Shown here: positions 18,236-22,181 of the stretch, in pieces
Position numbering within the stretch: the stretch's first letter is position 1
Layout: each line of letters starts with the position of its first letter
From: Parcubacteria group bacterium
GTDB taxonomy: Bacteria > Patescibacteriota > Minisyncoccia > Phycocordibacterales > UBA2100
Reading direction: 5' to 3'
DNA length: 53,025 bases
Assembly: GCA_943358385.1 (NCBI GenBank)
Contig: CALRGX010000007.1
Coordinates: forward strand, 1-53,025
Translations under genes and position numbers: made by a program
Notes under the pieces: model-generated
Seen by the model: only the letters and a program-made list of their open reading frames with translations
Database searches by the model: none
What the model was told of the DNA's origin: nothing

Positions 18236-18733
18236 ATGCTCACGCCTTCACTCCTCGTCTTTGGTCAGCTCATGCTTGCCACGGTGTTGGGTATGCTTAT
18301 TGGAACAGAGCGCGTAGCGGCAGGGAAGCGTGCCGGGACACGCACATTTGCACTCGTTGCCATGGGTGCATGCTTGTTTGTGATTACTGGGAAAGAAGTC
18401 AGCGACGCATACCTGGGTATTCTCAACTTCGATCCAATGCGCATTGCAGCCGCTGTAGTTCAGGGTGTTGGCTTTCTAGGCGCTGGTCTCATTTTCGTAC
18501 GCGACAATACCTTGAACGGGCTCACCACCGCAGCAGGTCTCTGGGTAGCTGCAGGAGTAGGTATTGCTGCCGGTTTTGAACTATATGCAATAGCCTGTTT
18601 TGCCACTTTCCTCACGCTGTTTGTCTTTACCGTCGTATGGCGTGTTGAAGATTTTTTGAAACACTTTTTTGATTCACACGAAGTGGCAACACATGGCCCA
18701 CATAGCCACCAGCGCGACCAGGGTATTGAGTAG
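18236..18733 (+). CDS. MgtC/SapB family membrane protein
   Basis: IGTER...AGTRTFALV, DPMRIAAAVVQGVGFLGAGLI, GLTTAAGLW. Confidence 0.93.
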   Translation: MLTPSLLVFGQLMLATVLGMLIGTERVAAGKRAGTRTFALVAMGACLFVITGKEVSDAYLGILNFDPMRIAAAVVQGVGFLGAGLIFVRDNTLNGLTTAAGLWVAAGVGIAAGFELYAIACFATFLTLFVFTVVWRVEDFLKHFFDSHEVATHGPHSHQRDQGIE

Positions 18734-18769
18734 CTCACTGCACGGCAGCGTCAGTGATACACTGCACCC

Positions 18770-19576
18770 ATGAGCCAATTCTACAAACCCGACCGCAACG
18801 CAAAATGGAACTATGGCGGCCCCAATTGGCGCCTCTCTCGCTCGAAAATCGACCTCTTTATTGAATGCCCACGCTGTTTCTATATCGACAATGTCCTCGG
18901 GACCGCGCGCCCACCTGGTTTTCCCTTCAACTTGAACAGTGCCGTGGACGCTCTTTTTAAAAAAGAATTTGATATTCATCGGCACGCAAAATCCTCACAT
19001 CCGATAATGAAGCAGTATGGCGTGGATGCGGTTCCATTCCAGCACGAACAGATGGATGTGTGGCGTGAAAATTTCAAGGGCATCCAATACAAACACGAAG
19101 GAACTGGTTTTACTATTTCTGGTGCTGTTGATGACGTGTGGGTCAACCCGCAAGGGGAATTACTCGTAGTTGACTACAAGTCAACCAGCAAAGACGAAAA
19201 GATTGAGGCGCTCGATCAAGACTGGCATGCGGGGTACAAACGCCAAATGGCTGTGTATCAGTGGCTGTTACGCCAAAACGGTTTTACCGTTTCGGATACA
19301 GGATACTTTGTGTATGCCAATGCAAGTAAAGATCGCGAGGCCTTTGATGGCGTCTTAGAATTTGAGGTCACCCTGATTGCACATAAAGGCAACACTGACT
19401 GGATAGAACCCGCCCTCCTTAACATCAAGGCATGTGTTGAGAGCGACCTCATCCCACCAACAGGAGAGACATGCGACTACTGTACCTACCGAGAGTTTGC
19501 GGGGCAAAAGCTTAAAAAACGCCATCTGGAACTGAAGGAAAAAGGGCTGCTTCCTCCCAAAAAAGATCTGGCCTAA
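18770..19576 (+). CDS. PD-(D/E)xK nuclease superfamily protein (RecB/AddB/Cas4-like)
   Basis: LSRSKIDLFIECPRCFY, GAVDD, VVDYKST, QMAVY, CDYC. Confidence 0.85.
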   Translation: MSQFYKPDRNAKWNYGGPNWRLSRSKIDLFIECPRCFYIDNVLGTARPPGFPFNLNSAVDALFKKEFDIHRHAKSSHPIMKQYGVDAVPFQHEQMDVWRENFKGIQYKHEGTGFTISGAVDDVWVNPQGELLVVDYKSTSKDEKIEALDQDWHAGYKRQMAVYQWLLRQNGFTVSDTGYFVYANASKDREAFDGVLEFEVTLIAHKGNTDWIEPALLNIKACVESDLIPPTGETCDYCTYREFAGQKLKKRHLELKEKGLLPPKKDLA

Positions 19577-19582
19577 TAGGTA

Positions 19583-19611
19583 TTGACATATAGACTAAAA
19601 TAGTGTATAGT
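19583..19611 (+). promoter_or_regulatory. sigma70-type promoter not followed by a CDS
   Basis: TTGACA (19583-19588), 17 nt, TATAGT (19606-19611). Confidence 0.8.
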
Positions 19612-19617
19612 TGCAAC

Positions 19618-19758
19618 AGCGATAGGGGTTGGTCTGCCTGTTGCTTACGGGCGAGCGCCCACGGTGATGCTGAAGGTTCGCCCTCAGTATCTGCCAGCTC
19701 TCCCGTATGGAGAGACCATGTTGCGCCGGGACACACGTGTTCCGGCGCACTTTCTTTA
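19618..19758 (+). ncRNA. candidate structured small RNA, family unknown
   Basis: Own promoter; nested stems 19630-35/19713-18, 19646-56/19697-707 and 19663-76/19681-95 capped by a UUCG loop; ends in a terminator. Confidence 0.55.
19722..19758 (+). terminator. intrinsic terminator closing the candidate RNA
   Basis: TGCGCCGGGA...TTCCGGCGCA followed by CTTTCTTTA. Confidence 0.75.
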
Positions 19759-19812
19759 TGCACGCCCATTTCGTGGGTGGCTTTTCAAACACGATGGTAT
19801 ACTTTTCCGAAT

Positions 19813-20400
19813 ATGCATTGGTCACCGCGCATCGAACAAGCTCTGTATCGCGCCGCAAAACTCCACGAAGGACTCTTTCGCAAGGGACCAGATCGATTAC
19901 CTGCCCTGGTGCACTTGGTTGGTGTTGCGTCTATCGTCAGTGAGCATACGGATGATGAGGATACGGTGGTGGCCGCGCTCCTGCATGATTCTATCGAGGA
20001 CACGTCATACACACCGGAAAATCTGCGGGAAGAGTTTGGTGAACGGGTGATGGGTTTTGTTCTTGGCGTTACCATTCCAGAAATGCACGAAGGGAAAGAA
20101 ACAGGGGTCTGGAGTCGCGATCGCCGCCGCTATTTCGAAAACTTAAGCCACGCACCCATGGAATCTGTCCTCGTGGCCGCAGCTGACAAAATCCACAACT
20201 TCACGACTATCATTCGCGACTACATGGACAACCCTGATGGCTTCAAGCGCGACTTCACCGGCACCAAAGAGGACCGTTTGAAGGTGTACGGATCTATTGC
20301 GGAATTAATCTGCGATCGTTTGGGGCCAGAACACCCACTTTCCGATGAGCTCTCGGAGGTCTGGAAAAAGTACGAGGCATTTGTCATTATGGCGCTATGA
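19813..20400 (+). CDS. stand-alone RelA/SpoT-type HD hydrolase (Mesh1/SAH-like)
   Basis: AAKLHEGLFRKG, H-x-x-GVA, AALLHDSIEDT, EEFGERV, AADKIHN; start reassigned to 19813 (TATACT 9 nt upstream). Confidence 0.82.
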   Translation: MHWSPRIEQALYRAAKLHEGLFRKGPDRLPALVHLVGVASIVSEHTDDEDTVVAALLHDSIEDTSYTPENLREEFGERVMGFVLGVTIPEMHEGKETGVWSRDRRRYFENLSHAPMESVLVAAADKIHNFTTIIRDYMDNPDGFKRDFTGTKEDRLKVYGSIAELICDRLGPEHPLSDELSEVWKKYEAFVIMAL

Positions 20401-22181
20401 CGCCACCCAACTCACTTCTCGATTACAAAACTGTATGGGATCTAGCACTCCTGTATACAAGCCCCGAAGACCCACAGATTGAAAAGGATGTGCGTGACCT
20501 TGAGCGCCGCTACGCAGGATTTGAAAAGAAGTTCCGTACAGCCGCGTTCACGAAGAGCGCGGGAGCACTTCTGAAAGCTCTGCAAGACTACGAAAAGCTT
20601 GCTGATATTGCGGGTGGAGGCAAACCCTTGCGCTACTTTTGGTATCGCAAAGAGCTCAACGGAAAAGACGACACCGCAGAAGCACGTATCCGCCTGATTT
20701 CTGAGCGCTTCACCAAGGCGGGCAATCGCATTACCTTTTTTGACCTTGCGATTGGAAAAATTCCTACGACCCAACAAAAAAAGTACCTGAAAGACAAACG
20801 ACTCGCCCCATACCGATACTTCCTCACGCGTATATTTAAAACTGCCAAGCACGACCTCTCTGAACCCGAGGAAAAGCTACTCGCCCTAACATCTGCACCA
20901 TCCGGTGGTATGTGGGTTTCAGGTGTAGACAAAGCAATCGCTGCACGCACGATTACCTGGGAAGGGAAGGAGATGCCGCTAAATGAGGCACTGAGTGCAG
21001 CGTCGCACAAGGAGACACAAAGCGACCGCGCTGAGATGTGGAAGCTCATCCTTGAAAAGATTGCGGAAGTCGCGGAATTTTCGGAGAGCGAAATCAACGC
21101 ACTCTATACCAAAAAGAAAATTACAGACGAACTACGTAAGCTGCCCGAGCCATACAGTGCCACCATTCTCGGCTACGAAAACGACGAAAAGAGCGTGCGC
21201 ACCCTCATCGATACGGTCACTGCCGCATTCCCAGTGGCCCACCGCTTTCATGCGCTAAAGAAGCGCTTGCTGAACCTCGATTATCTCACCTATGCAGACC
21301 GCGCAGCTCCGCTCATGCTGCCAGAGGTAAAGACAGAACCGTTTCCGTTTGATCGCTCATACCGACTGGTACGAGAAGCATTCGCCGATGCGGGTGAGCA
21401 CTATGCAGCCATTTTAGACAACTTCCTGGTACGCGGGCAAATTGATGTAAGACCAAAAGCCGGAAAGAGTGGAGGAGCCTTTTGTGCGAGCGCACATCGT
21501 CTACCCACCTACGTACTCCTCAATCATACTGATGACTTCAACTCCACCATGACCTTGGCGCACGAAATGGGCCACGCGATTCATAGCGAAATGTGCGCCA
21601 AGCAACCGGTGTTCTACGACGATTATTCAACTGCAGTTGCGGAAACAGCGAGTACTTTTTTTGAAGGCTGGGCATTCGAGCATATCGCACGCACCCTACC
21701 AAAAGAACACCGCATTAAACTGCTGCATGACCGCTTACAGGACCATGTCGCCACGGTATTTAGGCAAATCGCCTGCTTCAACTTCGAGCTAGAACTGCAC
21801 CGCACTGTGCGTAAAGAGGGCTGGGTACCGAAAGAAAAGATTGCGGCACTAATGCAAAAGCACATGCAGGCATATTTGGGCCCCAGCGTTACGGTTACCC
21901 CCGAAGACGGCTTCACTTTTGTAAATTGGTCGCACATTCGCAACCCGTTCTACGTGTACTCTTATGCTTACGGGCAACTGATTAGCAGTGCCTTACTGCA
22001 ACTAGCGCACACAGATCGCAAGCACGTAGCTAAAGCTGCTGCCTTCATGGAGGCTGGCTCCACGGATACACCTGAAAATATTTTCAAGAAAGTAGGTATC
22101 GACGTGACGAAACCAGCATTCTGGAAAGCAGGCATTAAAAGCATCGAGCGAGATATCAACGAGCTCGAATCCCTTATCTAA
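20397..22181 (+). CDS. M3B family oligoendopeptidase F-like peptidase
   Basis: WDLALLY N-terminus, GKSGGAFC, TLAHEMGHAIH (HExxH), AETAS, FYVYSYAYG; ATGA overlap with the HD gene. Confidence 0.9.
   Translation: MTPPNSLLDYKTVWDLALLYTSPEDPQIEKDVRDLERRYAGFEKKFRTAAFTKSAGALLKALQDYEKLADIAGGGKPLRYFWYRKELNGKDDTAEARIRLISERFTKAGNRITFFDLAIGKIPTTQQKKYLKDKRLAPYRYFLTRIFKTAKHDLSEPEEKLLALTSAPSGGMWVSGVDKAIAARTITWEGKEMPLNEALSAASHKETQSDRAEMWKLILEKIAEVAEFSESEINALYTKKKITDELRKLPEPYSATILGYENDEKSVRTLIDTVTAAFPVAHRFHALKKRLLNLDYLTYADRAAPLMLPEVKTEPFPFDRSYRLVREAFADAGEHYAAILDNFLVRGQIDVRPKAGKSGGAFCASAHRLPTYVLLNHTDDFNSTMTLAHEMGHAIHSEMCAKQPVFYDDYSTAVAETASTFFEGWAFEHIARTLPKEHRIKLLHDRLQDHVATVFRQIACFNFELELHRTVRKEGWVPKEKIAALMQKHMQAYLGPSVTVTPEDGFTFVNWSHIRNPFYVYSYAYGQLISSALLQLAHTDRKHVAKAAAFMEAGSTDTPENIFKKVGIDVTKPAFWKAGIKSIERDINELESLI

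Follow-up and report, generated by a model that had tools for sequence, protein, structure and literature searches.

A predicted small RNA gene inserted beside an HD-domain gene in one genus-level clade of Paceibacterota

The data presented here suggest that a lineage-specific small RNA gene, kept by selection, lies between a PD-(D/E)XK nuclease gene and an HD_4 gene in a small Paceibacterota genome, and that it represents a new family within the ordinary class of bacterial small RNAs. The gene is part of an insertion, is present in single copy in its genome, has a structure that covaries between lineages, is under purifying selection and is independent of the promoter of the gene that follows it. 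Our favored reading, held with moderate confidence, is that it encodes an independent, functional, stand-alone small RNA that acts as a riboregulator in trans. Its transcription, its exact ends, its action in trans and any target or partner are predictions from the sequence. To our knowledge, the small RNAs of the CPR/Patescibacteria are almost unstudied, and the locus offers a concrete target for metatranscriptomics of the CPR communities of groundwater and wastewater. The reach of the finding is narrow, as it concerns one clade with an uncultivated host and answers no long-standing question alone.

The stretch of DNA that was analyzed, 53,025 nt and referred to here as the window, is contig 7 of a CPR/Patescibacteria (Paceibacterota) MAG of about 0.9 Mb (914 kb in 19 contigs, 51.7% GC). 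The gene order around the RNA is ATP-cone/Mrr-like nuclease, DUF7282 protein, MgtC, PD-(D/E)XK nuclease, RNA, HD_4 protein and M3 oligoendopeptidase, and in relatives the M3 peptidase gene is followed by the AlaRS gene. The PD-(D/E)XK nuclease gene is syntenic in all relatives, and in the window its stop codon is separated from the -35 box of the RNA by 6 nt. The coordinates of all features are given in Table 1.

Table 1. Features of the RNA locus and its neighbors, in window coordinates.
Feature	Position	Strand	Description
PD-(D/E)XK (Cas4-like) nuclease gene, upstream neighbor	18770-19576	+	268 aa; Pfam PDDEXK_1, E = 5e-16
Sigma-70-type promoter of the RNA, TTGACA-17-TATAGT	19583-19611	+	11/12 consensus positions
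Promoter hexamers	19583-19588; 19606-19611		-35 TTGACA; spacer 17 nt; -10 TATAGT
P1 hairpin (predicted)	19618-19645	+	stem 19618-19624 with 19639-19645; 14-nt loop GGGGTTGGTCTGCC
P2/P3 long irregular hairpin (predicted)	19647-19706	+	P2 97.5% and P3 100% of cells paired
P2 strands	19647-19651 and 19653-19656		paired with 19697-19700 and 19702-19706
P2/P3 internal loop	19657-19662		GCCCAC opposite A19696
P3	19663-19695		invariant U-G and G-U pairs; bulged U19692; variable apical loop
Purine-rich linker	19707-19721	+	ATGGAGAGACCATGT; AGACCA at 19713-19718 pairable with P1-loop TGGTCT at 19630-19635
Intrinsic terminator and U-tract	19722-19758	+	stem 19723-19734 with 19737-19748, 12 bp, GC-rich
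Variable spacer 3' of the terminator	19759-19794	+	GCTTTTCAAACACG at 19780-19793 homologous to L065 post-stop sequence
HD gene extended -10 promoter	19795-19803	+	TGGTATACT; ATG 19813-19815, 9 nt on; block 19795-19815
HD_4 (RelA/SpoT-hydrolase-like) gene, downstream neighbor	19813-20400	+	195 aa; Pfam HD_4, E = 8e-17
M3 oligoendopeptidase gene, 3' of the HD gene	20397-22181	+	Pfam Peptidase_M3, E = 1e-31

The promoter and the terminator that the original prediction had named were both present. A promoter scan found TTGACA-17-TATAGT to be the sole strong promoter-like site within 18500-20800, and a terminator scan returned a hairpin at 19722-19749 with 12 pairs (8 of them G-C) and a loop of 4, followed by CTTTCTTTAT. 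Judging from the promoter geometry, this strong sigma-70 promoter would start transcription near A19618, 7 nt past the -10 box. Termination would take place within the U-tract, and the terminator geometry places the 3' end near 19757, which would give a product of about 140 nt.

The region 19611-19760 had a predicted folding energy of -68.2 kcal/mol (z = -4.23), a value equalled by none of 200 dinucleotide-preserving shuffles. Two elements of the proposed rod were found in both the MFE and centroid structures: the helix described as 10 of 11 pairs, which is an 11-nt inverted repeat with 91% complementarity (TACGGGCGAGC/GCTCTCCCGTA), and the TTCG-capped apical hairpin GGTGATGCTGAAGG-TTCG-CCCTCAGTATCTGCC. 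Searches for homologues, described below, added four further lineages that carry the RNA with compensatory changes (G001, L073, L074 and L075). In a model-fitted alignment of the core, 97.9% of cells were standard pairs and seven pairs had changed on both sides; this number of double changes was reached by 1 of 500 shuffles, and a control in which partners were slid gave 38-53% of cells paired and 0-3 double-change pairs. When the terminator and a candidate pseudoknot were included, an independent MAFFT alignment gave 95.2% of cells paired and eight double-change pairs, though it should be noted that these are five sequences from one clade that are not independent of phylogeny, which makes such counts suggestive and statistically weak.

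This pattern is suggestive of three hairpins, namely P1, P2/P3 and the terminator. Both-sided changes were seen at four of the seven pairs of the P1 stem across the five lineages; the stem is kept in L074 with a 3-nt bulge, and the P1 loop (14-15 nt) is conserved in four of the five and differs in L074. Three double-change pairs were found in P2/P3 (CG to UA, GC to AU and UA to CG). In the terminator stem, where 98.3% of cells were paired, double changes occurred at two pairs, including a G-C to A-U change in L075. The apical loop of P3 varies among close relatives (UUCG, GACCUU and GGUCUCU), and the U-G and G-U pairs of P3 are invariant in all five lineages. Read from the other strand those pairs would give A-C mismatches, which assigns the structure to the plus strand, in agreement with the promoter and the terminator.

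Other pairings in the original prediction fared less evenly. TGGTCT and AGACCA are both where they were said to be, one in the P1 loop and one in the linker. The two sequences had been described as pairing in a way that excludes the 5' hairpin; this holds for a nested fold, but as a pseudoknot both can coexist. At one position of the candidate pseudoknot the pair is U-A in the window and C-G in L075; a GGCC core of 4-5 bp is retained in the remaining three lineages, and 83% of cells are paired overall. However, the duplex energies only marginally beat those of shuffled linkers (p about 0.03-0.3). Given one compensatory change and marginal energies, a pseudoknot that joins the P1 loop to the linker is tentatively regarded as possible. 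The alternative pairing CTCTCC/GGAGAG is available in the window and in L075, but G001 and L073 use another register and it is absent in L074. GCAACAG/CTGTTGC was not the conserved pairing; the conserved register is shifted by 5 nt (AGCGATA/TGTTGCT), and it alone can form in all five lineages.

Comparison of identities between lineages argues for purifying selection on the RNA, on its structure and on its promoter. Identity was 39-51% at third codon positions of the HD gene and 32-44% in the spacer that follows the terminator (most lineage pairs in both cases), whereas it was 66-97% in P2/P3 and 74-96% in the terminator. Additionally, the five lineages share TTGACA without a change and all retain a -10 box of the TATNNT type, while the sequence between the two boxes is only about 50-59% identical between lineages, with the exception of the G001-like pair. 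This conservation is not that of a protein, since no frame is conserved on either strand among the five lineages and stops and frame-breaking indels occur in every frame, which bears out the earlier statement that the region holds no credible ORF. Public gene calls on L076-L079, the loci identical to the window, include an 85-aa minus-strand ORF at 19512-19769. It had no Pfam hit and is interrupted in G001, L073, L074 and L075; it is therefore a spurious call over a structured RNA.

A recombination breakpoint lies inside the RNA gene of L073 (GCA_021733565.1, JAKFZD010015951.1, 1255-2088). There, the promoter, P2/P3 and linker are 93-97% identical to those of G001 and P1 is 79% identical, whereas the terminator is 96% identical to that of the window, as are 86% of HD third codon positions, and the HD protein is 99.5% identical.

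The RNA was found in five distinct lineages of one genus-level clade, namely the window (with L076-L079), G001, L073, L074 and L075. BLAST against 60 relatives found it only in G001, which belongs to the same genus, and a covariance model of the core (R1) matched only the host genome and G001 among 151 genomes of the family. A second model built from five sequences (R2) had no further matches in 400 genomes of the order (224 genera). The rest of the clade was reached through the HD protein, whose 90%-identity cluster held five distinct HD sequences, and the RNA was upstream of all five. When JGI metagenome contigs were scanned with 22-mers, the only three matches were due to chance and fell in one protein-coding gene; a pattern scan of GTDB genomes gave 56 matches, which, apart from G001 itself, were chance occurrences in GC-rich genomes. 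To call the RNA a new class, a reading that had been offered among several, is to overstate the case, given that it is confined to one genus-level clade.

Outside this clade the site is empty. The closest outgroup loci (L065, L066, L068 and L070, with HD proteins 86, 85, 73 and 72% identical) share the gene order seen in the window, yet only 39-53 nt lie between their PD-(D/E)XK and HD genes, as opposed to 236 nt in the window. Therefore the cassette of about 200 bp is an insertion specific to the clade. R2, run with filters off, had no match at these loci or at L080 and L081. In L065, which has no RNA, GCTTTTCMAMCACG lies directly 3' of the PD-(D/E)XK stop codon, and its homologue in the window is the GCTTTTCAAACACG segment downstream of the terminator. 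From this, the insertion ends on the right near 19779, and the inserted block would then span about 19577-19779 and consist of the promoter, the RNA, the terminator and a short variable tail. The insertion would have occurred in the ancestor of the clade. The empty site in sister lineages allows the birth of the RNA gene to be dated to one genus-level clade, which makes the locus useful for studying how RNA genes arise.

A 13-nt direct repeat (ATAGGGGTTGGTC and ATATGCATTGGTC, 189 nt apart), shared between the P1 loop and the start of the HD gene, prompted the idea that the cassette arose by tandem duplication of the promoter and 5' region of the HD gene. This was rejected, as the alignment score was under the shuffled background. 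At a further locus, L080 (JGI Ga0136272_101595, 1147-1500; HD protein 70% identical), the upstream genes are a PolyA_pol-like gene and a 140-aa ORF. Its spacer is 353 nt long and includes a strong terminator that is unrelated (ACCGCCGCGCTTAAAAGCGCGGCGGT); it has no RNA homologue.

Bacterial small RNAs that act in trans typically have a promoter, a Rho-independent terminator and a narrow distribution. At the level of sequence the RNA is non-coding and has a promoter and a terminator of its own. It resembles trans-acting small RNAs such as the Hfq-independent ones of Gram-positive bacteria in its sigma-70 promoter, its length of about 140 nt, its 5' hairpin with a conserved loop, its 3' terminator with a U-tract, the lack of an ORF and its genus-level distribution. 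However, the most conserved part here is a long irregular helix and not a single-stranded seed, and the host has no Hfq or CsrA; both were absent from the host genome and from G001. In the model favored here, the transcript would fold into P1 with its conserved loop, a sequence-constrained irregular P2/P3, the terminator hairpin and possibly the pseudoknot, and it would then work in trans without either protein.

If the RNA does act in trans, the P1 loop or the purine-rich linker may base-pair with a target, which we put forward tentatively; protein binding through the invariant P2/P3 helix is a more doubtful suggestion. No exact complement of the P1 loop was found in the host genome. The best complements had 1-2 mismatches and were inside the coding regions of naively called ORFs, and a search of all ORF starts for targets of the P1 loop, the P2/P3 internal loop and the linker gave no compelling site. 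Pairing of the RNA with the 5' end of the HD mRNA was not significant (z between -1.9 and +0.9). A sponge of the CsrB/RsmZ type was considered and rejected, as the RNA has one or two GGA motifs at most and no CsrA was above the cut-off in the host genome or G001. The RNA also recalls orphan small RNAs derived from riboswitches or 3' UTRs (SreA and SreB of Listeria, EutX of Enterococcus), as it would be a terminated, structured transcript with possible action in trans. Like those it could arise as a 3' UTR, since the stop codon of the nuclease gene lies immediately before it, but unlike them it has no recognizable aptamer class.

It could also be that P2/P3, an invariant irregular helix with conserved G-U pairs, a bulged U and a 6 x 1 internal loop, is held in a pseudoknot and serves to bind one particular protein or small ligand. 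We consider this unlikely. If it were true, the RNA would be a newly evolved ribonucleoprotein or sensor RNA that is unique to this clade of ultra-small bacteria and caught near its origin, and the sister lineages that have no RNA would serve as natural controls.

A different proposal is that the RNA is not a gene of its own but a cis-acting leader or attenuator, in which P1-P3 would sense a ligand or factor and transcripts would either stop at the terminator or read into an operon of HD, M3 peptidase (pepF) and alaS. The arrangement invites this comparison. The RNA is co-oriented with the HD gene, whose ATG follows 55 nt downstream, the order of promoter, structured domain, terminator and gene is typical of riboswitches, and the HD protein is of the (p)ppGpp-hydrolase type, so that nucleotide sensing is plausible and leaders such as those of the ykkC/ppGpp class come to mind. 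Also, the linker can pair with the 3' strand of P2 instead in four of the five lineages, though in differing registers and without touching the terminator. However, no antiterminator or alternative pairing conserved in all five lineages was found, including any pairing with the 5' strand of the terminator, which leaves the switch-like RNA of the original prediction without support. No riboswitch in Rfam, the ykkC/ppGpp class included, was matched at E values up to 10, and no known riboswitch has a distribution nearly as narrow.

The strongest evidence against a leader comes from the HD gene itself. A TAYACT box is found 7-9 nt before the HD ATG in the five lineages with the RNA and also in the four outgroup lineages without it (L065, L066, L068 and L070), and most lineages, though not L065, have a TGn extended -10 element before it. 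The block of promoter and start codon is 83-100% identical between lineage pairs and lies downstream of the RNA terminator. No Shine-Dalgarno sequence precedes the HD ATG in any relative examined, so a read-through mRNA would have none. This implies that the HD mRNA is normally leaderless or nearly so and made from its own promoter. Because that -10 box is just before the ATG, the RNA would not be the 5' UTR of the HD gene, and the comparison of lineages with and without the RNA thus gives good support to the separate transcript that had been proposed. Taken with the sequence searches, this makes an attenuator decidedly unlikely. Other genes of the host genome have classical TTGACA promoters and leaders that contain Shine-Dalgarno sequences.

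An insertion of about 200 bp that is specific to a clade, in a spacer that is otherwise conserved, could also be a relic of mobile or foreign DNA (a MITE, or a phage or plasmid fragment) with no function in the cell. This is very improbable, as the insert has no terminal inverted repeats or target-site duplication, the RNA is single-copy with no paralogue or source sequence elsewhere in the host genome (blastn-short), and it was not found in collections of viral contigs, phage records or plasmid records. Also, its structure and sequence have been held by purifying selection while synonymous sites came near saturation.

The RNA was also compared with known families. The window had no match in Rfam 15 at gathering thresholds, and with E values up to 10 the core of the five lineages gave only chance matches (mir-610, and veev_FSE on the terminator), so that the RNA is without a match to any known family. 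The original prediction had suggested a 6S-like RNA, one that would mimic an open promoter and sequester the sigma-70 holoenzyme. There is a likeness to 6S RNA in the order of size, the strong promoter and a fold that can be drawn as a nested rod, in which TGGTCT/AGACCA, P2 and P3 are separated by an 11 x 6-nt internal loop. The role also appears unfilled, as canonical 6S RNA was not detected in the host genome or in 12 relatives, including G001. However, RF00013 had no match at 19450-19900 with E values up to 10, and the covariation supports three hairpins in place of a rod and puts the 5' side of the supposed bubble into the P1 stem. Additionally, the rod is about 90 nt as opposed to 150-200 nt in 6S RNAs, the ends form no closing stem and the 3' end is a terminator hairpin. 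Finally, sister lineages share the same RNA polymerase but do not carry the RNA. A 6S-like function is therefore extremely improbable.

A divergent housekeeping RNA missed by Rfam is barely credible: the strong promoter and stable fold of the RNA, in a genome this small, would suit one, but its distribution effectively refutes the idea, since neither the nearest outgroups nor 550 related genomes have it, the host has a tmRNA elsewhere (C1:119548-119950), and the RNA is too small for RNase P RNA. As stated in the original prediction, no signatures of SRP RNA, tmRNA or RNase P RNA were seen, in this case by Rfam and by a tRNA/tmRNA scan of the whole window, which found neither tRNA nor tmRNA. 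For SRP RNA in particular, the RNA matched neither RF00169 nor RF01854, its apical loop is variable and not GNRA, and it is confined to a clade, whereas SRP RNA would be expected to be universally present alongside Ffh.

Indeed, the SRP pathway as a whole appears to be absent from the order of Paceibacterota to which the host belongs. SRP RNA (RF00169) was detected in none of 13 genomes of the order, and in the host genome not even with E values up to 10; RF01854 was not found there either. The Ffh M domain (PF02978) was missing from all 21 genomes searched (the host and 20 relatives of the order), the SRP54-type GTPase domain common to Ffh and FtsY (PF00448) was above the cut-off in none of the 21, and a six-frame motif scan of the host genome for an SRP-type GTPase found none. 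An SRP RNA would thus not be expected in this order. Among 14 control genomes, 12-14 were positive in the same searches. Completeness is 97-100% for many of the 21 genomes of the order. A literature search on SRP loss and on small RNAs of the CPR found nothing relevant.

Some further features of the host genome were observed. Promoters of the form TTGACA-N17-TAGTAT at C1:80697-80760 and C1:85634-85700, both on the plus strand, are each followed at once by a short GC hairpin and a U-tract, and may represent very short transcripts or attenuators. ARAGORN reported a tRNA with an undetermined two-base anticodon '(tt)' at C2:65285-65359, and, beside the standard tmRNA, a second, permuted 'tmRNA*' at C5:35896-36230. 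This permuted tmRNA* call is followed, 9 nt past its end, by a TTGACA promoter (C5:36239).
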